The notes under the pieces were generated by a model. The model ran no database searches. It was not told the DNA's origin and saw nothing but the letters and a program-made list of their open reading frames with translations. Source: Heterodontus francisci (Eukaryota). From it: a stretch of 64,000 nucleotides of DNA. The stretch is taken from the NCBI RefSeq assembly GCF_036365525.1, contig NC_090388.1, forward strand, positions 64,133,726 through 64,197,725, written 5' to 3'. The position numbers and the translations under genes were made by a program. Shown here piece after piece: positions 4,338-59,313 of this stretch (its first letter is position 1; each line of letters opens with the position of its first letter).

Positions 4338-5882
4338 CAAGGTCGTCCAACATTTTCGGGCAGAGGGCTGCACTACGATTTTTGCTCGGCCTGGGGGGGC
4401 CAGTGAGCAAATTTCAAAAGAGAAAGGCATTAAAAATTTATCTTAAAACAACAAATGTGCATTTTTGTGAAGAAGCTTTAAATGAGAAGATTAATTTATT
4501 GACTTACTTTCTCGTCACTATATTGAAAACTGATTTAGTGACATATCTTGCATGGTTTTTGCTTGCATAAGTGGTCATCTCTGCCCTCACACTTGATGTA
4601 GCGATGCAGAGTATTTAGGATAGATGTGCATCTTTCAGGAGTGAGATCTTTCTCTCTGTTTCTGTTTCTCTCTTTCTCGGTGTTCTCCANNNNNNNNNNN
4701 NNNNNNNNNNNNNNNNNNNNNNNNNNNNNNNNNNNNNNNNNNNNNNNNNNNNNNNNNNNNNNNNNNNNNNNNNNNNNNNNNNNNNNNNNNNNNNNNNNNN
4801 NNNNNNNNNNNNNNNNNNNNNNNNNNNNNNNNNNNNNNNNNTCTCTGTTTCCCCCCTCTCTTTCTCTTTGTTNNNNNNNNNNNNNNNNNNNNNNNNNNNN
4901 NNNNNNNNNNNNNNNNNNNNNNNNNNNNNNNNNNNNNNNNNNNNNNNNNNNNNNNNNNNNNNNNNNNNNNNNNNNNNNNNNNNNNNNNNNNNNNNNNNNN
5001 NNNNNNNNNNNNNNNNNNNNNNNNNNNNNNNNNNNNNNNTCTCTCTTTGTTTCCCCCCGCTCTCTCTCTTTGTTTCCCCCCGCTCTCTCTCTTTGTTTCC
5101 CCCCGCTCTCTCTCTTTGTTTCCCCCCGCTCTCTCTCTTTGTTTCCCCCCGCTCTCTCTCTTTGTTTCCCCCCTCTCTCTCTCCCTCTCTTTGTTTCCCC
5201 CCTCTCTCTCTCCCTCTCTTTGTTTCCCCCCTCTCTCTCTCCCTCTCTTTGTTTCCCCCCCTCTCTCTCTCCCTCTCTTTGTTTCCCCCCCTCTCTCGCT
5301 CCCTCTCTTTGTTTCCCCCCTCTCTCGCTCCCTCTCTTTGTTCCCCCCTCTCTCTCCCTCTCTTTGTTTCCCCCCCCTCTCTCTCTCTCTCTTTGTTTCC
5401 CCCCCCCCTCTCTTTGTTCCCCCCTCTCTCTCTCTCTTTGTTCCCCCCCTCTCTCTCTCTGTTCCCCCCCCCTCTCTCTCTCTGTTCCCNNNNNNNNNNN
5501 NNNNNNNNNNNNNNNNNNNNNNNNNNNNNNNNNNNNNNNNNNNNNNNNNNNNNNNNNNNNNNNNNNNNNNNNNNNNNNNNNNNNNNNNNNNNNNNNNNNN
5601 NNNNNNNNNNNNNNNNNNNNNNNNNNNNNNNNNNNNNNNNNNNNNNNNNNNNNNNNNNNNNNNNNNNNNNNNNNNNNNNNNNNNNNNNNNNNNNNNNNNN
5701 NNNNNNNNCTCTTTGTTTCCCCCCTCTCTCTCTCTCTCTCTTTGTTTCCCCCCTCTCTCTCTCTCTGTTTCCCCCCCCTCTCTTTTCCCCCCCTCTCTCT
5801 CTCTCTTTGTTTCCCCCCTCTCCCTCTCTCTCTGTTCCCCCCCTCTCCCTCTCTCTCTGTTCCCCCCCTCTCCCTCTCTCTA

Positions 5883-5923
<41 letters not shown>

Positions 5924-6997
5924 CCCCCTCTCTCTCTCTCTCTCTGTTCCCCCCCCCCCTCTCTCCCTCTCTCTGTTCCCCCTCTCTCTCTCTTTGTTTC
6001 CCCCCTCTCTCTCTCTCTCTTTGTTTCCCCCCTCTCCCTCTCTCTCTGTTCCCCCCCTCTCTCTCTCTGTTCCCCCCCCTCTCTCTCTCTCTCTCTGTTC
6101 CCCCCCTCTCTCTCTCTCTCTCTGTTCCCCCCCTCTCTCTCTCTCTCTGTTCTCCCCCTCTCTCTCTCTCTCTGTTCCCCCCCTCTCTCTGTTCCCCCCC
6201 CTCTCTCTCTCTCTGTTCCCCCCTCTCTCTCTCTCTCTGTTCCCCCTCTCTCTCTCGCTCTGTTCCCCCCTCTCTCTCTCGCTCTGTTCCCCCCTCTCTC
6301 TCTCGCTCTGTTCCCCCCTCTCTCTCTCGCTCTGTTCCCCCCTCTCTCTCTCGCTCTGTTCCCCCCTCTCTCTCTCTCTCGCTCTGTTCCCCCCTCTCTC
6401 TCTCTCTCGCTCTGTTCCCCCCTCTCTCTCTCGCTCTGTTCCCCTCTCTCTCTCTCGCTCTGTTCCCCCCTCTCTCTCTCGGTTCCCCCCTCTCTCTCTC
6501 TGTTCCCCCCTCTCTCTCTCTGTTCCCCCCTCTCTCTCTCTCTCGCTCTCTTTGTTTCCCCCCCTCTCTCTGTTTCCCCCACCACCACCCCCCCCCCCAC
6601 CTCCCTGACAGTTGCACTGAGCAGGAGCGCTCAGAACAACAGCTTTGTGGTTGGTCAGTTTGTTTAAAAACATCACGCTGTCAGTTTCACAGCTGACAAC
6701 GTTTGAAGCAGGAACGCGCTTCCCAATATCAGACAGATTCTGAGTTTTGCAGTGGGCTTTAAAAAGTCAGAAAACCCCGAATCTTTCCGATGTTGGGAAG
6801 CGCGTTCCTGCTTCAGCAGCTGGCACCTGTGAAACCAACAGCGCAATGTTTTAAAAAAGGCCGCTTTGCAGGAAGACAAAAGGAAATCTCCATCTCCACT
6901 CATGGAGCCCTGGCGAAGATGAGGGACAGCTGCGGTCCGGATGGAAACCTTTGGCGGGCCGGATCCTGGCCTGCAGGCCATACGGTGGACAGCCCTG
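4338..6997. mobile_element. Non-autonomous hAT (Charlie-like) element carrying an internal satellite expansion
   Basis: Termini caaggtcgtccaac...ggtggacagccctg are imperfect inverted repeats; both ends match the element at 46101-46371 in opposite orientation; 8-bp flanks ttatatag/atatatcg. Confidence 0.65.
4650..6580. repeat. Polypyrimidine compound satellite (TGTT-Cn-(TC)n) with three assembly gaps
   Basis: Repeating tgtt(t)ccccc(c)tctctc units; N runs at 4690-4841, 4873-5039 and 5490-5708. Confidence 0.95.
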
Positions 6998-9949: not shown

Positions 9950-11418
9950 TGTCATGAAAACACAATATGCCAACTAAAGAATTTTTAATTCATCAGTTGA
10001 AAACTTACATTAAGCTTTTTACGGGAAAACCCCTGCAGTTAACTTTTTAAAAAACTAGCAGCCAAGATGGCCACCATAATTTGCATCCGAAATTTTCATA
10101 TTCAAAAAGATCCACCCAGAGCCAGAGGTTTGAGCAGCATGGCCCCAGGACAATGGCTTGCTCTAAGTGATTGAATTACCTAAAATTACTTCATTAGCAC
10201 GGCAGTCAAGGCAATCCTAACACCTTGACTTTGAAAGAGCAACCCCCCTCCAAGTGTAAATTGGCATCCTGGGGCCTGTGGAGCAAATTCCTGACCCTGA
10301 ATTTCACTACAAGGTTCCAGAAAACCTGAAGCAGTCATGTGACCATCTGTCCCTCTCAGTGGAAGGTGTTTTTTTCCCCCTTGGACAAAGAGACAAGCCA
10401 GTAACTCAGACCGTGCAGCAGGAAAAGGCTGTGTGCCTCCCTTTCTCTGTCTCTCTCCCCATGCAACACCCCCCCCCCGCCCCCACCCCGCCACTCCCCT
10501 CCAAATAACACAACTTTGGAAACCGTCTGCAACTATGGATCGATCCAAGCCTACTAGACTGCTACAGCTAGAGACCAGGGGAATAGAACCAACTCCAAGT
10601 CTGCCTCCAAGAAAGCCTTGAGCTAAGCCGGCCAACCGTAAAGTGCACTTTATCCAGCCAAGGACTTCAAGAATACAGCTTCAGCTGGAAGACCACCAAA
10701 TCATCCACTCCACAGACAGTGTATTTAAGTTCCATTTATTCTGGACTCCAATCCAAATACCAAATCTACTTTTCCCTTTGTAATCTATTTGTGTATATCT
10801 GATTCTCGTGTGAATGTGTAGCGTAAATTTATTATTTTCTAGATCGGTTTTAGATTAAGTACAATAAACTCACCTCTTTCTTGTTTAAATGCAAGAAAAC
10901 CTGTCCGATTGGTTCTTCAGTTTTAGTTTAGTTTAGAGATACAGCACTGGAACAGGCCCTTCGGCCCACCGAGTCTGTGCCGACCATCAACCACCCATTT
11001 ATACTAATCCTACACTAATCCCATATCCCTACCACATCCCCACCTGTCCCTATATTTCCCTACCACCTACCTATACTAGGGGCAACTTATAATGGCCAAT
11101 TAACCTATCAACCTGCAAGTCTCTGGCATGTGGGAGGAAACCGGAGCGCCCGGAGGAAACCCACGCAGACACAGGGAGAACTTGCAAACTCCACACAGGC
11201 AGTACCCAGAATTGAACCTGGGTCGCTGGAGCTGTGAGGCTGCAGTGCTAACCACTGCGCCACTGTGCCGCCCACATCACATTAAAGGTAAAAGGTAAAA
11301 CACTCACTGAGGTGGTAAGCACAACCACGGTTTTTTAAAAAGGGAATAATCCCTGCTGTGGTCAAAAGAGGAAGGAAAAGAGGGGAGTCTGAGACCCTCT
11401 CCTCACCTGGCCGTAACA
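9950..11418 (+). mobile_element. Solo LTR (TGTCATG...CCGTAACA) interrupted by a SINE
   Basis: TG...CA termini shared with the other solo LTRs, AATAAA at ~10864; no clean TSD. Confidence 0.55.
10919..11273 (-). mobile_element. HE1-like V-SINE
   Basis: Reverse complement of the 1749-2117 copy, (AAACT)n tail. Confidence 0.9.
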
Positions 11419-12180: not shown

Positions 12181-14314
12181 ACTCCCTCCGCAGCACTTAA
12201 AGCAGCCAGAAGTACTGCACAAAGAACAGCTAGGCGTTGCGCAAACGACTACTGGCAACACCTATGCAGTCATATTCAGCTGGCCTCAGACACCGGAAAC
12301 ATCAGAGGAATGTATGATGGCATGAAGAGAGCTCTTGGGCCAACCATCAAGAAGATCACCCCCCTCAAATCTAAATCGGGGGACATAATCACTGACCAAC
12401 GCAAACAGATGGACCGCTGGGTTGAGCACTACCTAGAACTGTACTCCAGGGAGAATGCTGTCACTGAGACTGCCCTCAATGCAGCCCAGCCTCTACCAGT
12501 CATGGATGAGCTGGACATACAGCCAACCAAATCGGAACTCAATGATGCCATTGATTCCCTAGCCAGCGGAAAAGCCCCTGGGAAGGACAGCATTACCCCT
12601 GAAATAATCAAGAGTGCCAAGCCTGCTATACTCTCAGCACTACATGAACTGCTATGCCTGTGCTGGGACGAAGGAGCAGTACCCCAGGACATGCGCGATG
12701 CCAACATCATCACCCTCTATAAAAACAAAGGTGACCGCGGTGACTGCAACAACTACCGTGGAATCTCCCTGCTCAGCATAGTGGGGAAAGTCTTTGCTCG
12801 AGTCGCTCTGAACAGGCTCCAGAAGCTGGCCGAGCGCGTCTACCCTGAGGCACAGTGTGGCTTTCGTGCAGAGAGATCGACTATTGACATGCTGTTCTCC
12901 CTTCGTCAGATACAGGAGAAATGCCGTGAACAGCAGATGCCCCTCTACATTGCTTTCATTGATCTCACCAAAGCCTTTGACCTCGTCAGCAGACGTGGTC
13001 TCTTCAGACTACTAGAAAAGATCGGATGTCCACCAAAGCTACTAAGTATCATCACCTCATTCCATGACAATATGAAAGGCACAATTCAACATGGTGGCTC
13101 CTCATCAGAGCCCTTTCCTATCCTGAGTGGTGTGAAACAGGGCTGTGTTCTCGCACCCACACTTTTTGGGATTTTCTTCTCCCTGCTGCTTTCACATGCG
13201 TTCAAATCCTCTGAAGAAGGAATTTTCCTCCACACAAGATCAGGGGGCAGGTTGTTCAACCTTGCCCGTCTAAGAGCGAAGTCCAAAGTACGGAAAGTCC
13301 TCATCAGAGAACTCCTCTTTGCTGACGATGCTGCTTTAACATCTCACACTGAAGAATGCCTGCAGAGTCTCATCGACAGGTTTGCGTCTGCCTGCAATGA
13401 ATTTGGCCTAACCATCAGCCTCAAGAAAACGAACATCATGGGGCAGGATGTCAGAAATGCTCCATCCATCAATATTGGCGACCACGCTCTGGAAGTGGTT
13501 CAAGAGTTCACCTACCTAGGCTCAACTATCACCAGTAACCTGTCTCTAGATGCAGAAATCAACAAGCGCATGGGTAAGGCTTCCACTGCTATGTCCAGAC
13601 TGGCCAAGAGAGTGTGGGAAAATGGCGCACTGACACGGAACACAAAAGTCCGAGTGTATCAGGCCTGTGTCCTCAGTACCTTGCTCTACGGCAGCGAGGC
13701 CTGGACAACGTATGCCAGCCAAGAGCGACGTCTCAATTCATTCCATCTTCGCTGCCTTCGGAGAATACTTGGCATCAGGTGGCAGGACTATATCTCCAAC
13801 ACAGAAGTCCTTGAAGCGGCCAACATCCCCAGCTTATACACACTACTGAGTCAGCGGCGCTTGAGATGGCTTGGCCATGTGAGCCGCATGGAAGATGGCA
13901 GGATCCCCAAAGACACATTGTACAGCGAGCTCGCCACTGGTATCAGACCCACCGGCCGTCCATGTCTCCGTTATAAAGACGTCTGCAAACGCGACATGAA
14001 ATCGTGTGACATTGATCACAAGTCGTGGGAGTCAGTTGCCAGCATTCGCCAGAGCTGGCGGGCAGCCATAAAGACAGGGCTAAATTGTGGCGAGTCGAAG
14101 AGACTTAGTAGTTGGCAGGAAAAAAGACAGAGGCGCAAGGGGAGAGCCAACTGTGCAACAGCCCCAACAAACAAATTTCTCTGCAGCACCTGTGGAAGAG
14201 CCTGTTACTCCAGAATTGGCCTTTATAGCCACTCCAGGCGCTGCTTCACAAACCACTGACCACCTCCAGGCGCGTATCCATTGTCTCTCGAGATAAGGAG
14301 GCCCAAAAGAAGAA
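12181..14314 (+). mobile_element. RTE-clade LINE, 5'-truncated (endonuclease missing)
   Basis: Uninterrupted RT ORF followed by a short 3' UTR ending in aaaagaagaa. Confidence 0.9.
12310..14259 (+). CDS. RTE reverse transcriptase ORF (649 aa; frame also open 5' of the ATG)
   Basis: Motifs NYRGISLLS, EAQCGFR, FIDLTKAFD, GVKQGCVLAP, LFADD, FTYLGS, RLRWLGHV and C-terminal CxxC...H finger. Confidence 0.9.
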   Translation: MYDGMKRALGPTIKKITPLKSKSGDIITDQRKQMDRWVEHYLELYSRENAVTETALNAAQPLPVMDELDIQPTKSELNDAIDSLASGKAPGKDSITPEIIKSAKPAILSALHELLCLCWDEGAVPQDMRDANIITLYKNKGDRGDCNNYRGISLLSIVGKVFARVALNRLQKLAERVYPEAQCGFRAERSTIDMLFSLRQIQEKCREQQMPLYIAFIDLTKAFDLVSRRGLFRLLEKIGCPPKLLSIITSFHDNMKGTIQHGGSSSEPFPILSGVKQGCVLAPTLFGIFFSLLLSHAFKSSEEGIFLHTRSGGRLFNLARLRAKSKVRKVLIRELLFADDAALTSHTEECLQSLIDRFASACNEFGLTISLKKTNIMGQDVRNAPSINIGDHALEVVQEFTYLGSTITSNLSLDAEINKRMGKASTAMSRLAKRVWENGALTRNTKVRVYQACVLSTLLYGSEAWTTYASQERRLNSFHLRCLRRILGIRWQDYISNTEVLEAANIPSLYTLLSQRRLRWLGHVSRMEDGRIPKDTLYSELATGIRPTGRPCLRYKDVCKRDMKSCDIDHKSWESVASIRQSWRAAIKTGLNCGESKRLSSWQEKRQRRKGRANCATAPTNKFLCSTCGRACYSRIGLYSHSRRCFTNH

Positions 14315-14923: not shown

Positions 14924-15263
14924 GCAGTGGTTAGCACCGCAGCCTCACAGCTCCAGCGACCTGGGTTCAATTCTGGGTACTGCCTGTGTGGAGTTTGCAA
15001 GTTCTCCCTGTGTCTGCGTGGGTTTTCTCCGGGTGCTTCGGTTTCCTCCCACAAGCCAAATGACTTGCAGGTTGGTAGGTAAATTGGCCATTATAAATTA
15101 CTCCTAGTATAGGTAGGTGGTAGGGAAATATAGGGACAGGTGGGGATGTGGTAGGAATATGGGGTTAGTGTAGGATTAGTATAAATGGGTGGTTGATGGT
15201 CGGCACAGACTCGGTGGGCCGAAGGGCCTGTTTCAGTGCTGTATCTCTAAAACTAAAACTAAA
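14924..15263 (+). mobile_element. HE1-like V-SINE, slightly 5'-truncated
   Basis: Near-identical to 1749-2117; (AAAACT) tail. Confidence 0.9.
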
Positions 15264-15645
15264 TCACCACATTGGCATACCCCACCTGTGGTTTCTGCCT
15301 GTTTACCCTCTTCATCAGCTTACAGGTGGCCTTAGACCATCTGGTGGTGCAAAACTCCGAGCAAAGGTACTCAACTACCAACTACTCGAAGTTAAATACA
15401 ATAACATTTACAAACTGCGAGCAAGTGTCGCATGATCAAACATGCCATGATCAAACCTCCAGGAATACCTCAATCTGAGTTGGCAAACCTATGCCCAATT
15501 AATCACAGCTATCATTAGCACAGTAACCATCTCAATAAAAGGACTACCATTTGTATTTATTCATATTGGCGATTGGTGACTAAACAAGCCAGTAGACCCA
15601 GCAGCACAGTAATACACAAAGGCTGGAAAAGCAGAAGACTCTTAC

Positions 15646-25794: not shown

Positions 25795-26555
25795 GAGGTA
25801 CAGTACTAGGGTCAGCCTTGGTGCGGCGATAGCATATCTGACTGAGTTAGAAGGGTGTGGGTTCAAGACCCTTTCCAGAGAATTGGCAGCATATTCCAGG
25901 CGGCACAGTGGCGCAGTGGTTAGCACCGCAGCCTCACAGCTCCAGTGACCCAGGTTCGGTTCTGGGTACTGCCTGTGCGGAGTTTACAAGTTCTCCCTAT
26001 AACCGTGTGGGTTTCCTCCCACATGCCAAAGACTTGTGGGCTGATAGGCCATTGTAAATTGCCCCTAGTGTAGGTAGGTGGTATGAGAATTGAGGGAAGG
26101 TGGGGATGTGAGAGGGAAATGGCATTAATGTAGGATTAGTATAAATGGGTAGTTGTTGGGCAGCGTGGACTCGTTGGGCCAAAGGGCCTGTTTCAGTGCT
26201 GTATCTCTCTATGACTCTAATTCAATGCAGCATTGAGGGAATGCTGCACAGTCAGAGGTGGCGTCTTTCAGCTGAGTCGCTAAACTGGTGGATATAAAAG
26301 ATCTCATGGCACTATTTGAAGAAGAGCTGAGAGTTCTCCCTGGTGACCTGGCTAATATCTATCCTTCTACCAACATTAGTAAAAAAATTATCATTTGTTT
26401 CATTCTGTTTGTGGCACCTTGCTGTGTGCAAATTGGCTGCCATATTTCCTACATTGCAACAGTGACTGCACTTCAAAAATATTTCATTGGCGTGTAGCAC
26501 TTCAGGAAATCCTGTGGTCATACAAGGTGTTATATAAATCTAAGTTCTTCCTTTC
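25795..26555 (+). mobile_element. DeuSINE-like copy interrupted by an HE1-like SINE (25899-26219)
   Basis: Decayed tRNA-like head (gggttcaagacc), Deu core resumes at ~26221, L2-like tail; nested V-SINE matches the other copies. Confidence 0.6.
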
Positions 26556-28600: not shown

Positions 28601-31512
28601 TTTTTTTTATTCATTCATGGGATGTGGGCTTCGCTGGCCAGGCCAGCATTGATTGCCCATCCCTAATTGCCCTAGGGAAGGTGGTGGTGAGCTGCCTTCT
28701 TGAACCGCTGCAGTCCATTTGGGGTAGGTATCTTCCAGTTGGTATATAGGCTAAGGGAGTAAACCCTAACAGAAAATCCGGAGCGGAACCCCGTAGGCGG
28801 TCATGTGTCACCTTTGGCATGTTTCCGGCAGTTCCTGCAGCCATACTGGTGCCAAACGTCGTGTCCTGCACTCCTTTGGACCCCACCAGAAAGGCCGAGA
28901 GGGGGGTTTTGACGACTGGGCAACTCTCAACCTCCATAAATTTGCCCAGGCATGCGCCATGGAGAGGTCACTCCATAATCACTGGCCACCTCCAGGCGCG
29001 TATCCATTGTCTCTCGAGATAAGGAGGCCCAAAAGGAAAAGGAAAGGATACCCACAGTGCTGTTACGAAGGGAGTTCCAGGATTTTGACCCAGGGACAGT
29101 GAGGGAAAGGCGATATAGTTCCAAGTCAGGATGGTGTGTGACTTGGAGGGGAACTTGCAGGTGGTGGTGTTCCCATGTATGTGCTGCCCTTGTCCTTCTA
29201 GTTGGTAGAGGTCGCGGGTTTGGAAGGTGCTGTATGAGGAGCCTTGGTGCATTGCTGCAGTGCATCTTGTAGATGGTACACACTGCTGCCACTGTGCGTC
29301 GATGGTGGAGGGAGCGAATGTTTGTAGATGGGGTGCCAATCAAGTGGGCTGCTTTGTCCTGGATGGTGTCGAGCTTCTTGAGTGTTGTTGGAGCTGCACC
29401 CATCCAGGCAAGTGGAGAGTATTCCATCACACTCCTGACTTGGGCCTTGTAGATGGTGGACAGGCTTTGGGGAGTCAGTAGGTGAGTTACTCGCCGCAGG
29501 ATTCCTAGCCTCTGACCTGCTCTTGTAGCCACAGTATTTATATGGCTACTCCAGTTCAGCTTCTGGTCAATGGTAGCCCCTAGGATGTTGATAGTGGGGG
29601 ATTCAGCGATGGTAATGCTGTTGAATGTCAAGGGAGATGGTTAGATTCTCTCTTGTTGGAGATGGTCATTGCCTGGCACTTGTGTGGCGCGAATGTTACT
29701 TGCCACTTATCAGCCCAAGCCTGGATATTGTCCAGGTCTTGCTGCATTTCTACACAGACTGCTTCAGTATCTGAGGAGTCACAAATGGTGCTGAACATTG
29801 TGCAATCATCAGCGAACATCCCCCCTTCTGACCTTATAATTGAAGGAAGGTCATTGATGAAGCAGCTGAAGATGGTTGGGCCCAGGACACGACTCTGAGG
29901 AACTCCTGCAGTGATGTCCTGGAGCTCAGATGATTGACCTCCAACAACCACAACCATCTTCCTTTGCGCTAGGTATGACTCCAGCCAGCGGAGGGTTTTC
30001 CCCCGGATTCCAATTGACCTCAGTTTTGCTAGGGCTCCTTGATGCCATACTCGGTCAAATGCTGCCTTGATGTCAAGGGCAGTCGCTCTCACCTCACATC
30101 TTGAGTTGAGCTCTTTTGTCCATGTTTGAACCAAGGCTGTAATGAGGTCAGGAGCTGAGTGGCCCTGGCGGAACCCAAACTGAGCGTCACTGAGCAGGTT
30201 ATTGTTAAGCAAGTGCCGCTTGATGGCACTGTTGATGACACCTTCCATCACTTTACTGATGATTGAGAGTAGACTGATGGGGCGGTAATTGGCCGGGTTG
30301 GATTTGTCCTGCTTTTTGTGTACAGGACATACCTGGGCAATTTTCCACATTGCAGGGTAGATGCCAGTGTTGTAGCTGTACTGGAACAGCTTGGCTCGGG
30401 GTGCGGCAAGTTCTGGAGCACAAGTCTTCAGTACTATTGTCGGAATATTGTCCGGGCCCATAGCTTTTGCAGTATCCAGTGTCTTTAGTCGTTTCTTGAT
30501 ATCACGCAAAGTGAATCGAATTGGCTGAAGTCTGGCATCTGTGATGTTGGGGACTTCAGGAGGAGGCCGAGATGGATCATCAACTCGGCACTTCTGGCTG
30601 AAGATTGTTGCAAATGCTTCAGATTTATCTTTCGCACCGATGTGCTGGGCTCCCCCATCATTGAGGATGGGGATATTTGTGGAGCCACCTCCTCCAGTTA
30701 GTTGTTTAATTGTCCACCACCATTCACGGCTGGATCTGGCAGGACTGCAGAGCTTCGATTTGATCCATTGGTTATGGGATCGCTTAGCTCTGTCTATCGC
30801 ATGCTGCTTACGCAGTTTGGCCCGCAGATAGTCCTGTGTTGTAGCTTCACCAGGTTGACACCTCATTTTGAGGTATGCCTGGTGCTGCTCCTGGCATGCC
30901 CTCCTGCACTCTTCATTGAGCCAGGGTTGGTCTCCTGGCTTGATGGTAATGGTAGAGTGGGGGATATGCCGGGCCATGAGGTTACAGATTGTGGTTGAGT
31001 ACAATTCTGCTGCTGATGACCCACAGCGCCTCATGGATGCCCAGTTTTGCATTGCTAGATCTGTTCGAAATCTATCCCATTTAACACGGTGATAGTGCCA
31101 CACAACACGATGGACGGTATCCTCAATGTGAAGGCGGGGACTTCGTCTCCACAAGGACTGTGCGGTGGTCACTCCTACCAATATTGTCATGGACAGAGGC
31201 ATTTGCAGCAGGCAGATTGGTGAGGACAAGGTCAAGTATGTTTTTCCCTCGTGTTGGTTCCCCCACCACCTGCCGCAGCCCCAGTCTAGCAGCTATGTCC
31301 TTTAGGACTCGGCCAGCTCGGCCAGTAGTGGTGCTACCGAGCCACTCTTGGTGATGGACATTGAAGTCCCCCACCCAGAGTACATTTTGTGCCCTTGCCA
31401 CCCTCAGTGCTTCCTCCAAGTGGTGTTCAACATGGTGGAGTACTGAGTCATCAGCTGAGGGAGGGCGGTAGGTGGTAATCAGTTGGAGGTTACCTTGCCC
31501 ATGTTTGATCTG
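28601..31512 (-). mobile_element. CR1/L2-group LINE, 5'-truncated, frameshifted; same family as 55332-58605
   Basis: APE motifs YRPP, GDFNVHH, LDLVLTN, SDH; RT motifs NYRPISLL, QFGFR, LDIKAAFD, MFADD; 3' end ...cccatgaatgaat plus A tract. Confidence 0.9.
28731..29047 (+). mobile_element. Short non-autonomous RTE-derived element
   Basis: 28986-29035 is identical to the RTE 3' UTR at 14260-14309; sits inside the LINE 3' region and is absent from the paralogous copy (~55455-55470). Confidence 0.8.
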
Positions 31513-48700: not shown

Positions 48701-48989
48701 TGCAATGTTATTGTGAAATTTAATTATTTTTATTTTGAACTATATAGTGGATATAGAAATTTTAACCATCGACCGAAATGATAAATCAAAATATTTTTCA
48801 GAAAAGAACTTGCATTTATATAAGCACCTTTCATGGCCTTTGTTCAGCCCAAAATCACTTTACAGCCAATGAAGTACTTTTGACACCTAGTCACTGTTAT
48901 AACGTAGGAAACATGACGGCCAATTTGTGCACAGCAAGCTCCCACAAACAACAATGAAATAAATGGCCAAATAATGTTTCTGGTAGGTT

Positions 48990-49545
48990 TTCTTTTAGTT
49001 CATGGAATGGGTGTGTCACTGGCAAGGAAAGCATTTATTACCCTTATTTAATTGCCATCGAGAAGGTGGTGGTGAGCTGCCTTCTTGAACCGCTGCAGTC
49101 TGCCTGGTGTAGGTAGACCCACAGTAGTGTTAGGTAAGGAGTTCCAGGATTTTGACCCAGCAACAATGAAGGAACAGCGATTGTATTCCCAAGTCAGTAT
49201 GGTTTGTGACTTGGAGGCATTGGTGTTCCCACATGCCTGTTGCCTTCATTCTTCTAGGTAGTAGAAGTCGTTGGTTTGGAAGGTAGTGTGAAAGAAACCT
49301 TGGCAAGTTATTGTAGCGGAGGGTATTCTATCACATTCTGCCTTACGCCTTGTAAATGGTGAAAAGGCTTTGGGGATACAGGAAGTGAGTTAATTTTCAC
49401 TGAACACTCCGTTTCTGACTTACTGTTGTAGCCACAGCGTTTATATGGCTTGTCCAGTTAGGTTTCTGGTCACCCCCCACCAACCCCGGGATGTTGTTGA
49501 TAGGGATGCCGTTGAATGTCAAATGGAGATGGTTAGATTCTCTGA
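48990..49545 (-). mobile_element. Old 3' fragment of the 28601/55332 LINE family
   Basis: gagaaggtggtggtgagctgccttcttgaaccgctgcagtc and ggagatggttagattctct shared, with internal deletions. Confidence 0.75.
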
Positions 49546-52500: not shown

Positions 52501-55331
52501 TTTATAGGAAAGGATTCCCCTACATCCACATCATGTGTGGCTAAGGTTGCACATCCTGGCTTGTCCCTACAGACTCCTTTAAATGCTGAGTAGCCTAGTT
52601 AGGTCTTCTCGATGTTTTTATATTTAGATGCAGAACATAGTGTCCAATCTCCCTAATAATTCAGTATGAGCTAACCGGATAGTAGGAGGTTCAATTTGAG
52701 AATTGTCTAGGTCTCTTTCTGCCTCATCCTCACTATCCCTTTCATCCTTCACTGTCTCTACTACCTGTCATACCGGTACTTGCCTATCCTCCTCCTGGCA
52801 ATAATATTGTTTTAATATATTGATATGACACAGCCGATTCTTCTTCCGGCAATCTGGGGTGTCAAATAGTTTACTTTACCAATTCTTTTGACCGCTTTAT
52901 ATGTACCACTGAACCGTGCTTTCAGTGGTTCACCCTGCAAAGGCAGTAATATGAACACCACATCCCCTGGTTGAAATGTTCAGCTCTTGGCATGCTTGTC
53001 TGGGAAGCTTTCAGGTGCTCCTGAGCCACTTTACAGGCTCTCATGAGCCGTTCCCAGAACACTGGTACATAATCTAGTACAGAAGATTCATCCCTCAGTT
53101 CTAAAAACATTTCTTTAGTGTAAGAGAACCTCTTCTCTCATGTCCATAAACTAATTCAAAAGGACTAAAACCAGTAGTCACATTAAGTGAATCCCTCGTA
53201 GCAGAAGAAATTTTAGCCCTTTATCCCAATCATGGAATACTGTTATGAATATCCCCCTGATCATCATTTTGAAGGTCTGATGGTACCTTTCTAAAGCCCC
53301 TTTTGTCTGTAGGGGATGTGCTGAAGACTTTAACTGTGTTATACCCAAATTATTCACAACTTCCTGGAAACTTTCAGACATAAAATTAGAACCTTGATCC
53401 AACTGAATCTCAATCAGTAATCCATATCAAGAGAACGGGGCTAACTTCTCTACCACAACCTTAGCAGAAATTGTTCTCAAGGGAATAGCTTCTGGGAACG
53501 GAGTAGCCATATCCATGATAGTGAGTATTTATTGGTGTCCCGCTTCTGTTTACAGTAAAAAGGTCCTACACAGTCTACCAACACCCTACTAAATGCTTCC
53601 CCAAAAACAGGAATGGGAATTAGAGGTGTCAGTTTTACGGCAGGTTGAGGTTTTCCCCCACAATCTGGCACATTTTACAAAATTGTACCATGTCCTTGGA
53701 AAGACCTGGCCAGTATAAATGGTGATTTGTGTGTGATTGGATCTTCCGGATCCCCACATTTCTCACTGTAAAAATTTCCTGGGCTATCCTTAATATTTCC
53801 CGGTGATACTACTATCTGATGAACAACCATCCATTCTTCATCCGTGGGTCTGGGAGGAGGTCTCCAGTTCATCAGAATCCCATTTTTAATATAATAGCCT
53901 TCCAGAACTCCTTTTGCCTCAGCTTCCAAGAGAGCTGATTTTGCCACTTTACTTAACTCTGGATTGGCTTGCTGAGACTTGATCAGAGAAGATTTATTGA
54001 ACATTTCCTTCAGATTATCCAAACTCCCAAAAAAGTTTCAGATATTTGGCTCTGTGGCGTTAGCTTTATCTTCAACAATGGGACTTGTTTAGCCACTGCT
54101 CGGGTCGCTACACATGAAGGAAAAGTTCCAGGAACCTTTTCCTGCAACTGTTCTGTCTTTAACTTCACTTGGTTTTTCTGTGACTACTGGAAAAGCTATT
54201 ATCTTTGCTCCGGCCAAATCATTCCCCAGGAGTAGGTCAACTCCATCTACCGGCAAACTATGGACAACTCCTACAGTTACTGTTTCAGATATTAGGTCAC
54301 ACTCTAGGTACACCCAATACAAAGTTATGGGTATATACTCCCTGCTGCTACCATTCACTAAAACCTTGGCATTCAGTGCACACTCTGGTGGAAATGTTAT
54401 ACCTTTCCCCAACAGAGTTTGGGTGGCTCCTGTATCCCTCATGATCACTACAGGTTTACCTGCCTCACTTGAGGGATAAGGAGTTACTTTTCCTTTTGAC
54501 AAGAATTCTCTATAACTATCAGGTATCCTGTTTACGTCTTCCACATTCTCAGCGGTTTTTGTACTTGGCCTTACAGCTGCAGTCAGAGCTACAGCCTGAT
54601 CTGTTGTACTCTCAGTCAGGGCCCCTTTATCTACATTGGACTTATTGGGGTACAGAAGTCCAATGTGTTTACAACTTCCAACATTTTGCATGAAGGTGTC
54701 CCACCTTGTGATAATGGTAACATTTAGGCTTGTGGACCTCAGCGCATTCCGTTCTGGCCGGAGGAGATGCCAGGGCGTTTCCAGCTGTCCCTTGTCCCTG
54801 ACTACTTGCCTTCCTTTCACCCTCCCACCTTCAATCCTGCTCTGGTTTGTGGGAGTGACGGACAAAGGGTTTGGGCTTATAAACAAGCTCATAATAATCA
54901 GCGATGTCTGCTGCCTGTCTGACTGTTGAAATTTTCTGGTTCTCTACATGGGTTCTTACTAACAGAAGGAATGAACTTTTAAATTCTTCCAGGAGAATTA
55001 GTTCCGTTAGGGTTTCTCATGTGACCTCTATCTTTAGTGCCCACATCCAATCGAAATTAATTTGCTTTACCCTCTCAAATAAGTCTGCCCAGGCTGTCTC
55101 CAGAGGTTCTGAAATTTCTGCCTGTATGCTTCAGGGACCAACTCATAAGGCTATTCTCGTTGCTTTTTTCCCCATCGCAATCTGCAGAGGCCTCCTCAGA
55201 AAAGCATGGCATAAACTTCATCAGCTCTGCCCCTCAACCTGTTTTCCTTCGGCCACTTCATCTGTTTAGCTATCTTTTTAAAAGGAAATGAAAAATGCCT
55301 CCAAGTCCCTTTCCTCAAACTCCGAGAGGGC

Positions 55332-58300
55332 TTTTTTTTATATTCATTCACGGGATGTGGGCATCGCAGGCCAGACCAGCATTTATTGCCCATCCCTAAT
55401 TGCACTTGAGAAGGTGGTGGTGAGCTGCCTTCTTGAACTGCTGCAGTCAACGTGAGGTAGGTACACCCACAGTGCTGTTAGGAAGGGAGTTCCAGGATTT
55501 TGGCCCAGCGACAGTGAAGGAACGGCGATATAGTTCCAAGTCAGGTTGGTGTGTGACTTGAAGGGGAAAATTGTAGGTGGTGGTGTTCCCACATATTTGC
55601 TGCCCTTGTCCTTCTAGTTGGTACAGGTCGCGGGTTTGGAAGGTGCTGTCTAAGGAGCCTTGGTGCGTTGCTGCAGTGCATCTTGTAGATGGTACACACT
55701 GCTGCTACTGTGCGTCGGTGGTGGAGGGAGTGAATGTTTGTAGATGGGGTGCCAATCAAGCTGGCCGTTTTCTCCTGGATGGTGTCGAGCTTCTTGAGTG
55801 TTGTTGGAGCTGCACCCATCCAGGCAAGTGGAGAGTATTCCATCACACTCCTGACTTGTGCCTTTGTAGATGGTGGACAGGCATTGCGGAGACAGGAGAT
55901 GAGTTACTCGCCTCAGGATTCCTAGCCTCTGACCTGCTCTTGTAGCCACGGTATTTATATGGCTACTCCAGTTCAGTTTTCGGTCAATGGTAGCCCCTAG
56001 GATGTTGATAGTGGGGGATTCAGCGATGGTAATGCCGTTGAATGTCAAGGGGAGATGGTTAGATTCTCTTTTGTTGGAGATGGTCATTGCCTGGCACTTG
56101 TGTGGCACGAATGTTACTTGCCACTTATCAGCCCAAGCCTGGATATTGTCCAGGTCTTTCTGCATTTCTACACAGACTGCTTCAATATCTGAGGAGTTGC
56201 GAATGGTGCTGAACATTGTGCAATCATCAGCGAACATCCCCACCTCTGACCTTATGATTGAAGTAAGGTCATTGATGAAGCAGCTGAAGATGGTTGGGCC
56301 TAGGACACTACCCTGAGGTACTCCTGCAGTGATGTCCTGGAGCTCAGATGATTGACCTCCAACAACCACAACCATCTTCCTTTGCGCTCGGTATGACTCC
56401 AGCCAGTGGAGGGTTTTCCCCCTGATTCCCATTGACCTCAGTTTTGCTAGGGCTCCTTGATGCCATACTCGGTCAAATGCTGCCTTGATGTCAAGGGCAG
56501 TCACTCTCACCTCACTTCTTCAGTTCAGCTCTTTTGTCCATGTTTGAACCAAGGCTGTAATGAGGTCAGGAGCTGAGTGGCCCTGGCGGAACCCAAACTG
56601 AGCATCACTGAGCAGGTTATTGCTAAGCAAGTGCTGCTTGATGGCACTGTTGATGACACCTTCCATCACTTTACTGATGATTGAGAGTAGGCTAATGGGG
56701 CGGTAATTGGCCGGGTTGGATTTGTCCTGCTTTTTGTGTGCAGGACATACCTGGGCAACTTTCCACATTGCAGGGTAGATGCCAGTGTTGTAGCTGTACT
56801 GGAATAGCTTGGCTAGGGGCGCGGCAAGTTCTGGAGCACAGGTCTTCAGTACTATTGCCGGAATATTGTCAGGGCCCATAGCCTTTGCAGTATCCAGTGC
56901 CTTCAGTCGTTTCTTGATATCACGTGGAGTGAATCGAATTGGCTGAAGTTTGGCATCTGTGATGCTGGGGACTTTAGGAGGCCGAGATGGATCATCAACT
57001 CGGCATTTCTGGCTGAAGATTGTTGCAAATGCTTCAGCCTTATCTTTCGCACTGATGTGCTGGGCTCCCCCATCATTGAGGATAGGGATATTTGTGGAGC
57101 CACCTCTTCCAGTTAGTTGTTTAATTGTCCACCACCATTCATGGCTGGATGTGGCAGGACTTCAGAGCTTAGATCTGATCCGTTGGTTATGGGATCGCTT
57201 AGCTCTGTCTATCGCATGCTGCTTATGCATGTTGTAGCTTCACCAGGTTGACACCTCATTTTGAGGTATGCCTGGTGCTGCTCCTGGCATGTTCTCCTGC
57301 ACTCTTCATTGAACCAGGGTTTGTCTCCTGGCTTGATGGTAATGGTAGAGTGGGGGATATGCCGGGCCATGAGGTTACAGATTGTGGTTGAGTACAATTC
57401 TGCTGCTGCTGATGGCCCACAGCGCCTCATGGATGCCCAGTTTTGCACTGCTAGATCCGTTCGAAATGTATCCCATTCAGCACGGTGATAGTGCCACACA
57501 ACACGATGGACGGTATCCTCAATGTGAAGGCGGGACTTCTTCTCCACAAGGACTGTGCGGTGGTCACTCCTACCAATACTGTCATGGACAGATGCATCCG
57601 TGGCAGGCAGATTGGTGAGGACGAGGTCGAGTATGTTCTTCCCTCGTGTTGCTTCCCCCACCACCTGCCGCAGGCCTAGTCTAGCAGCTATGTCCTTTAG
57701 GACTCGGCCAGCTCAGTCAGTAGTGGTGCTACCGAGCCACTCATGGTGATGGACATTGAAGTCCCCCACCCAGAGGACATTTTGTGCCCTTGCCACCCTC
57801 AGTGCTTCCTCCAAGTGGTGTTCAACATGGAGGAGTACTGAGTCATCAGCTGAGGGAGGGCGGTAGATGGTAATCAGTAGGAGGTTACCTTGCCCATATT
57901 TAACCTGATGCCATGAGACTTCATGAGGTCCGGAGTCGATGTTGAGGACTCCCAGGGCAACTCCCTCCCTACTGTATACCACTGTGCCACCACCTCTGCT
58001 GGGTCTGTCTTGCCGGTGGGACAGGACGTACCCGGGGATGGTGAAGGCAATGTCTGGGACATTGTCTGTTAGGTATGATTCCGTGAGTATGACTATGTCA
58101 GGCTGTTGCTTGACTAGTCTGTGGGACAGCTCTCCCAACTTTGGCACAAGCCCCCAGATGTTAGTAAGGAGGACTTTGCAGGGTCAACAGGGCTGGATTT
58201 GCCGTTGTCGTTTCCGGTGCCTAGGTTGATGCCGGGTGGTCCGTCCGGTTTCATTCCTTTTTATAGACTTCGTAGCGGTTAGGTACAACTGAGTGGCTTG

Positions 58301-58605
58301 CTAGGCCATTTCAGGAGGGCAAGTAAGAGTTAACCACATTGCTGTGGGTCTGGAGTCACATGTCGCCAGACCAGGTAAGGACAGCAGATTTCCTTCCCTA
58401 AAGGACATTAGTGAACCAGATGGGTTTTTACAACAATCGACAATGGTTTCATGGCCATCATTAGACCAGTTTTTAATTCCAGATTTTTATTAAGTTCAAA
58501 TTCCACCTTCTGCTGTGGTGGGATTCAAACCCATGTCCCCAGAGGAATACCCTGGGTCTCTGGGTTACTAGTCCAGTGATAATACCACTTTGCCACCGCC
58601 TACCC
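55332..58605 (-). mobile_element. Apparently full-length ORF1-less CR1/L2-group LINE with tRNA-like 5' head (this copy disabled)
   Basis: APE from KVLLTNIWGL, ILTESYL, GGGTVVY, YRPP, GDFN; RT PQGSVLGP, MFADD; host gag sequence resumes on both sides. Confidence 0.85.
58515..58605 (-). promoter_or_regulatory. tRNA-derived internal Pol III promoter (tRNA-Thr(AGT)-like)
   Basis: A box TGGCAAAGTGG (58585-58595), B box GGTTTGAATCC (58521-58531), anticodon-like arm CTGGA-CTAGTAA-CCCAG. Confidence 0.7.
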
Positions 58606-59172
58606 TGATTACACAAATTTAGACAGCTCTCCACTGGGTCCTGGGCTGAAGTCATATCTTTTCTCACCAGAGCTTTCACTGGAGTCAAGACCACCCCTTT
58701 CTCTTAGTTATATATTTTTAAATTTGAATTCTCTTTCCTGCCACTCTGCTTGCGCCCTTTGGAATTCTAGTACAACTTTTTTTTCCCAATGTCAAATCCC
58801 ATTCCTGCTTTTTCCCTTCCAAGTTCAAGCTGCTTCATCTGCAATTGAACTTCAGCTAATTCAGTGGCACTACCATCTGGTTCACCTTTTTATTCTTCCA
58901 ATTGCAAATGCTGTACTATTTCTTCAATTATGTTTGCTTTCTTTGCTCCTGGTTTTAACTCAACCCCAATTTTACTGCCAATGCCATTAGCTTAGTCTTG
59001 GTTAAATTTCTCAAATCACTCAGGGATAAGTCCTCCTTCTCCAGAAAGGTCGTAGCAACTGACAAATCCATTCCGGTAATGTAAACTTTAATGCACAAGA
59101 AACCTTTTTTTTTTTTAAAAACTTCTCTTTTCAATTATTACCACCTCATTTGCAATTGCATGTCATCGGGTT

Positions 59173-59190
59173 ATCCCAAATGAGCCCTCA
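59173..59190 (-). promoter_or_regulatory. Primer binding site, tRNA-Pro type
   Basis: TGAGGGCTCATTTGGGAT vs PBS-Pro TGGGGGCTCGTCCGGGAT (14/18, all transitions), 2 nt from the LTR end. Confidence 0.75.
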
Positions 59191-59313
59191 GTTGTATATC
59201 ACGATCGAGGCAGGAGGAGTGCACTGTTTTTTTTCTAGTTCCACTTCTCCACAGGTCACAACATACATTTAAATTTTTATCTAGTTATTCATGTAGTCAA
59301 TCATAGACTCTAT

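Follow-up and report, generated by a model that had tools for sequence, protein, structure and literature searches.

Introduction

Retroelements are commonly divided by polymerase and by content, long interspersed elements (LINEs) being described, in the passages of PMC10886601 that deal with them, as protein-coding transcripts of RNA polymerase II (Pol II) and short interspersed elements (SINEs) as non-coding transcripts of RNA polymerase III (Pol III). Two described groups stand closest to the element considered here: the Zenon LINEs (CR1 group), which Stuart et al. 2026 (PMC13343379) report from sharks, rays, coelacanth and hagfish as elements that carry a poly(A) tail and in every case lack ORF1, and SINEs of the SacSINE1 type, whose head and body also occur in chimaera and coelacanth according to the sections of Luchetti et al. 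2017 (PMC5499810) in which the conservation of SINE bodies is left unexplained. Here we describe an element on the minus strand of a 64,000-nt stretch of the Heterodontus francisci genome (contig NC_090388.1, forward-strand positions 64,133,726 to 64,197,725; hereafter the window), in which a tRNA-derived, SINE-type head precedes a reading frame for an endonuclease (APE) and a reverse transcriptase (RT), and in which T-runs are strongly depleted from the sense strand.

The original prediction, made from the letters of the window, had proposed an autonomous SINE/LINE hybrid selected for read-through by Pol III, and had left it undecided whether the family was already described. It is: comparison with published consensuses identifies the family as the elasmobranch Zenon-1 LINE of Stuart et al. 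2026 (PMC13343379). The words 'tRNA', 'SacSINE' and 'polymerase III' have no occurrences in the main text of that paper, in which the SINE head, the purge of T-runs and the AUG-less start apparently go undiscussed, and a full-text literature search outside most subscription journals, Repbase and Dfam returned no title or abstract on a Pol III-transcribed autonomous LINE or on a SINE head on Zenon. The family itself is therefore known; its SINE promoter seems to have escaped comment, and its purge of T-runs is strong and fairly specific.

Results

A tRNA-derived head on a LINE

Coordinates are window positions and, as the element lies on the minus strand, its 5' end has the highest number. The element runs from 58605 to 55332 and is a decayed copy of an abundant family of about 3.3 kb. 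Its first 100 nt (58506-58605, including a 5-nt leader) can be aligned with a tRNA-Thr(AGT) gene that ARAGORN calls in this genome; the score is 59, whereas 500 shuffles reached no more than 44. The match takes in the A box (58585-58595, with two changes from the family majority in this copy), the CTAGTAA remnant of the anticodon loop (58565-58571) and the B box (58520-58532, with one CpG-type change), and is interrupted by an insert of about 20 nt in the variable region, within which a hairpin of the CCCAGGG/CTCTGGG type (58538-58556) folds in the sister copy L037 (z -3.0). Each component of the tRNA-like module that had been read from the sequence was thereby recovered, although the head itself is called a tRNA by neither ARAGORN nor Rfam. 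The 5' end of the family, as defined by the ends of its copies, falls at 58605, 5 nt ahead of the mature tRNA start and 10 nt ahead of the A box; a Pol III leader would begin at about such a position. An excess of mutations at tRNA position A58, as a signal of a misread modified base, was looked for and not found, and scanning 58200-58800 against Rfam turned up no ribozyme with E values up to 10, this being a scan made with no descriptor search for a ribozyme like that of hepatitis delta virus (HDV).

The reading frame opens at 58300, about 300 nt behind the 5' end as predicted, and contains matches to the Pfam APE (PF03372/PF14529) and RT (PF00078) families. It forms a single APE-RT frame (55396-58300) of 975 codons in the family majority, which stops and frameshifts break in the window copy. 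The nearest database proteins are unnamed and 35-43% identical. Both flanks of the element translate to one broken sequence of gag-protease-integrase type (motifs by eye), as the gag sequence noticed on either side had suggested.

A genome query with head plus APE gave 6,059 first-look candidates, of which 40 were scored. All 40 match the whole 556-nt query, 39 of them, besides the window copy, at 96-97%; each of these 39 begins at nt 1-8 and has flanks unrelated to those of the others, and in 36 of them the fetched stretch includes the 3' end. As this set had been chosen by its head, a second search was made with the coding body alone, the 40 matches of which collapse to 30 loci, one being the window and 29 others being analysed. 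Seventeen of the 29 begin at the head (one by eye across a short deletion, and one at the same locus as L037), and the other 12 are 5'-truncated at nt 23-711; an alternative shared 5' region was found at none. Full-length copies thus start at the tRNA head, as anticipated, and the junction with the body recurs throughout the genome. Older copies, 88-94% identical to the young majority, retain the head.

The majority of the 40 copies is 3,296 nt long (mean divergence 2.2%), has a poly(A) tail and holds a single 975-codon open frame that begins at nt 306. The 305 nt that precede it, together with the absence of any other 5' region at the 29 body-selected loci, exclude an ORF1 from the structure, in line with the prediction. 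Between the older and the young majority, 33 of the changes outside CpG are synonymous and 20 are replacements, which indicates purifying selection on the APE-RT frame of the lineage that is propagated. Target-site duplications were sought in 31 copies and were absent, or at most matches of 3-7 nt at chance level. Some copies (L033, L035, L038, L041, L046) are nested in earlier insertions of this LINE or of the corresponding SINE.

The same arrangement extends beyond this genome. Seven published Zenon consensus rows from five species were compared by eye over their first 400 nt, and the Zenon-1 consensuses of CarCar, RhiTyp, ScyCan, SquAca and HypSab (four sharks and one ray) closely resemble the present element, with the same head and junction, and have no TTTT in that interval, whereas hagfish Zenon-1 and -2 and coelacanth Zenon-1, inspected in the same manner, have no such head and do contain TTTT. 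The comparison marks the head-body hybrid as a family trait conserved from sharks to rays and not as a local chimera.

Depletion of T-runs on the sense strand

The window copy contains one sense-strand TTTT (55570-55567) against 16 A4, 9 C4 and 8 G4 runs (T4 and the like denoting runs of four), and this run is missing from the family majority. It is missing too from the window's own sister copy (28601-31512, minus strand), which reads CAAGTTCCCC at the site and has no T4 at all; that copy contains an RTE fragment and, being 5'-truncated and headless, is uninformative on the head. Fragments of RTE and CR1 type in the window hold 3, 7, 8 and 13 T4 runs. The contrast drawn in the original prediction between this element and its neighbours was therefore reproduced, and across the 40 copies T4 runs occur at 0.09 per kb, as against 4.7 for A4, 3.3 for C4 and 2.3 for G4.

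The depletion is most evident in shorter runs. Under synonymous-codon permutation the open reading frame (ORF) has 4 runs of at least three T where 13.1 are expected, a number as low being reached in 0 of 3,000 shuffles, with A, C and G runs normal. All four TTT runs are Phe codons, and Phe itself makes up 1.8% of the ORF; among 120 relatives the median is 4.1%, and two have less Phe than the shark family. A synonymous T that would create TTT across a codon junction is used at 0 of 40 opportunities, the T rate being 0.27, and a synonymous T before any codon starting with T at 4 of 91 (P=3e-8 against the same rate).

Controls from the same genome were taken from a Pfam APE search, because the CR1 fragment of the window yielded only old copies. 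Twenty ORFs from three families, which we take to be CR1, have 7-14 T4 runs and z values for runs of three T between -0.4 and +1.4, and the four of them tested at codon junctions gave ratios of 0.89-1.05. Relatives from other eukaryotes came from metagenome contigs (80 loci, 74 with a frame of at least 400 codons): all 74 ORFs contain T4 (3-56 runs), their lowest junction ratio is 0.54, and their z values for runs of three T extend from -2.8 to +2.8, compared with -3.6 in the shark family. TTT avoidance is accordingly strong and fairly specific, the absence of T4 being weak when taken alone.

Two observations on the control families may be recorded here. A very young RTE family (12181-14310 in the window, and L185-L199) has copies 99% identical with intact frames of 1,060 codons; in several copies more than 1.4 kb of common sequence precedes the frame, presumably an unusually long region for RTE. 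In the CR1-type copies L283 and L300 an upstream frame runs stop-free into the APE-RT frame (1,281 codons in L283, with the same length at four other places).

Translation start

No in-frame AUG precedes the endonuclease, the first Met lying about 200 codons into the frame. The frame starts with an Arg-rich leader (58175-58300) ahead of the APE motif, in which 7 of 8 CpGs belong to Arg CGN codons of the main frame and in which a conserved out-of-frame ATG is present at 58254-58252; database relatives have Met followed by a similar basic leader, with starts as assigned by the gene caller. Immediately 5' of the ORF lies an in-frame mini-frame, ATG-GCC-TAG (58301-58309), whose ATG is retained in 99 of 102 copies and whose TAG in 73 of 102. 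For all five species, the published Zenon-1 consensuses contain both this mini-frame and the out-of-frame leader ATG. In all, ten upstream AUGs were counted, with no in-frame AUG opening the ORF.

Several candidate starts were tried. The idea that the TAG is replaced by a sense codon in a master lineage, prompted by 24 of 102 copies with such a codon, was rejected: these copies do not group together on the tree, and T in CCTA is a mutation hotspot throughout the element; T in this context, mainly CCTAG (e.g. majority nt 243, 303 and 2182), is replaced by G or C about 8 times more often than in the median T context. Readthrough from the upstream in-frame ATG is supported neither by variation among the copies nor by the tree. 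Nor is a start at the TTG that ends the SINE body supported: TAA directly follows this TTG in 10 of 102 copies (a single branch holds eight of the ten) and in Squalus consensuses as well, the whale shark row differing in spacing (by eye). A folded structure resembling an internal ribosome entry site (IRES) was not found at nt ~295-455 (z +0.8). Some non-canonical initiation seems to be needed; this would suit an uncapped RNA and is no proof of one.

The 3' end

The 3' tail (55332-55411) contains AATAAA (55387-55382), a stem-loop and a T followed by an A-tail, with AATAAA about 43 nt ahead of the T and A-tail. T-runs at this point were counted by hand in the first 100 listed of 1,348 exact tails, where lengths of 1, 2, 3, 4, 5 and 6 occur in 62, 10, 7, 6, 14 and 1 tails, respectively, the peak within T4-T6 being T5. 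Runs of at least T4 thus stand in place of the first As in 21 of these 100 tails, and in 215 tails genome-wide, exceeding backgrounds of 58/842 and 10/120 (Fisher P=2e-5 and 0.011). Tails with such runs are dispersed across the tree irrespective of age, and longer T-runs go with shorter A-tails. The runs were probably gained after insertion and are not counted here as evidence for Pol III, because the pattern resembles the lengthening of terminators after insertion that is described for mammalian T+ SINEs in the relevant part of PMC9599045. Copies with T4-T6 tails have a Pol III terminator of their own 3' of AATAAA. The window also holds an old 3' fragment of the same family (48988-49543, minus strand), 69-75% identical.

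Relation to a SINE of the same genome

A SINE of about 400 nt (3,189 candidates, 29 copies aligned) corresponds to nt 1-321 of the LINE (87% identity) joined to its last ~78 nt (91%). The shared body occupies 58285-58505 of the window, its core being nearly identical, and the 3' tail described above is also common to both. We take this SINE to be SacSINE1 and its body to be a Deu domain, an assumed naming for which the architecture in PMC5499810 also served as a guide. In the LINE, this conserved SINE body sits directly before a reading frame. Capture of the 5' part of the SINE by the LINE appears more likely than the reverse, because the head and body are present in chimaera and coelacanth while the coelacanth and hagfish Zenon rows are headless, although the ends of the consensus rows compared may be poor.

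A second tRNA-headed SINE, which we presume to be HE1/V-SINE-like, is present in the window in four copies 78-95% alike (1739-2102, 10923-11283, 14924-15269 and 25899-26208), the first of which ARAGORN calls as a tRNA.

Other features of the window

The host of the insertion is an element of long terminal repeat (LTR) type at 53000-55331 and 58606-59300 on the minus strand, in which gag motifs come first, protease motifs next and integrase motifs last; it is presumably a gypsy element, and the motif order is Gmr1-like. A tandem repeat at 4535-6766 has long stop-free frames on both strands and is partly masked.

Discussion

We propose a mechanism in which Pol III transcribes the family from its internal boxes through a T-purged body, the uncapped product serving both for translation and for target-primed reverse transcription, and assign it a probability of roughly 0.6. 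An ancestral Zenon would have taken the 5' part of the SINE by template switching before the split of sharks and rays. TFIIIC would then bind the A and B boxes and Pol III start at nt 1, crossing 3.3 kb because selection had removed T-runs, and stopping at the earliest T4 that it met from the A-tail onward. Translation of the resulting uncapped RNA would follow a route that is cap-independent, starts at a non-AUG codon or uses reinitiation, perhaps aided by the Deu body, and the encoded protein would copy its own tail, and that of the SINE, by target-primed reverse transcription. Two precedents are relevant: sharp termination by human Pol III from four T, as reported in PMC13385618, and the R2 element, for which the account in PMC6765202 indicates that uncapped LINE RNA can be translated, probably by way of an IRES-like 5' structure.

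Transcription of the family by Pol III is, on these indirect sequence signs, somewhat favoured. The more specific picture of an autonomous LINE transcribed end to end by Pol III into an uncapped RNA translated from no AUG start, whose Deu domain, a module conserved among the SINEs of diverse animals, would serve as a 5' untranslated region that recruits ribosomes or aids long Pol III elongation, is more tentative, and we put it slightly below even odds. Of the original prediction, the hybrid structure stands across the family, the purge of T-runs is strong at the level of TTT, and selection for Pol III read-through is retained as an interpretation. The missing ORF1 is not counted as a sign of Pol III, because Zenon LINEs generally are without ORF1 in the account of PMC13343379.

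A number of points weigh against the proposed mechanism. The comparison of T4 counts with shuffled sequence, one of the tests named in the original prediction, is weak in itself (ORF, 0 observed against 2.1 expected, P=0.08, not significant; whole element, 0 against 3.2, P=0.026), and it is the avoidance of TTT that goes far beyond the controls. Pol III retroelements are reported in PMC10886601 to be limited in length, SINEs there measuring 100-700 bp. The start codon could not be placed, both ATG readthrough and TTG having been tried, and the AUG-less start is not unique, because CR1 ORF2 frames of the same genome also lack an early Met. Contigs from sequencing runs of four organisms, in which an origin from RNA is guessed, span the whole element and show neither starts nor strand. 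The remaining points bear on the choice of polymerase. The depletion extends to TT and TTT, although Pol III termination would by itself call for no avoidance of runs shorter than its T4 threshold; the young RTE of the same genome, with the same T content, avoids TT too (z -3.0; junction ratio 0.66; windows with four T in five, z -2.6), retaining 4 T4 runs, one of them a T5; the canonical AATAAA in the tail suits Pol II as well; and mammalian Pol II is described in PMC11610936 as also terminating at promoter-near T-tracts.

These last points could be accommodated if the captured head were, or contained, an internal Pol II promoter, or if TFIIIC just kept the site open, so that the RNA would be capped and polyadenylated and its T-poverty would reflect attrition of Pol II at T-tracts, RNA stability or the loss of U-rich decay signals. 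That LINEs generally are Pol II transcripts, according to passages of PMC10886601 and PMC5786205, is in keeping with such an origin, as are the milder TT avoidance of RTE and the position of AATAAA ~43 nt before the tail. However, the subfamilies, the sharks and the ray have all kept both boxes and a 5' end at the position where Pol III would start; CR1 and related LINEs tolerate many T4 runs; and a ribosome that scanned along a capped RNA would come upon ten upstream AUGs, none of them opening the ORF in frame. We consider a Pol II origin less likely than Pol III, though it is the main rival.

Considerably less probable is a division of labour, in which Pol III would make the template that is copied and the protein would come from capped read-through or spliced transcripts of copies in host genes. 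The fixed 5' end and the T purge would then be explained without cap-independent translation, the failure to find an IRES-like fold at nt ~295-455 would be unsurprising, and many copies are described as intronic in whale shark (bioRxiv 10.1101/443036, in the part concerned). Yet the copied RNA may also be the source of the protein, a relation known as cis-preference, and the purifying selection seen in the 33 synonymous and 20 replacement changes is easier to maintain if it is. A chance SINE-LINE chimera at this locus, or repeated insertion of SINEs before truncated LINEs, for which the abundance of SacSINE1-like SINEs would give ample material, is refuted by the same junction in 39/39 and 17/29 other loci and in five published species consensuses, with no SINE tail between head and ORF.

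If the proposed Pol III mechanism is correct, the family would be a LINE on a SINE promoter, with codons shaped against T-runs, that breaks the division between Pol II LINEs and Pol III SINEs, and its transcript would be a natural Pol III messenger RNA in a vertebrate.

Comparison with known systems

Among the metagenome-contig relatives, ARAGORN called a tRNA head at 0 of 60 loci scanned (of 80), which is uninformative because ARAGORN misses the shark head too, and a B-box motif was present in 0 of 74 related loci, many of whose contigs may lack 5' ends. The described elasmobranch Zenon-1 (PMC13343379) agrees with the present family in length (3.2-3.3 kb), absence of ORF1, APE and RT domains and poly(A) tail, and no structural difference was found from what is reported there. 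A LINE containing tRNA-like sequence has been reported in RTE-1_DAn and relatives (Kojima 2018, PMC5786205), which differ in belonging to the RTE clade; the passage concerned gives neither the position nor the role of the tRNA-like part and makes no Pol III claim. Bov-tA and SINE2-1_ACar, as presented in PMC4494074, likewise fuse a tRNA head to LINE-derived parts but are non-autonomous and encode no protein.

The SacSINE1 and LmeSINE1 Deu-SINEs share the tRNA head, the conserved body and the LINE-type tail, but are non-coding and about 400 nt long, and homology to their partner LINE, L2-2_CM, is reported at the tail only in the sections of PMC5499810 concerned. The T+ SINEs B2 and Can have in common with the shark family a tRNA head, AATAAA, a T-run or its rudiment and an A-tail; they differ in being short, non-coding and mammalian, and polyadenylation of Pol III RNA has been shown for them in the account of PMC9599045. 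R2, as treated in PMC6765202, is also a single-ORF non-LTR element that relies on a polymerase other than Pol II and whose uncapped RNA is translated, the corresponding polymerase of the shark LINE being putatively Pol III; unlike the latter, R2 is a site-specific Pol I co-transcript freed by an HDV-like ribozyme and has no internal tRNA promoter. Set against the class of tRNA-derived SINEs (SINE2), finally, the family has their head with A and B boxes but is neither short nor non-coding, being 3.3 kb long with an APE-RT frame.

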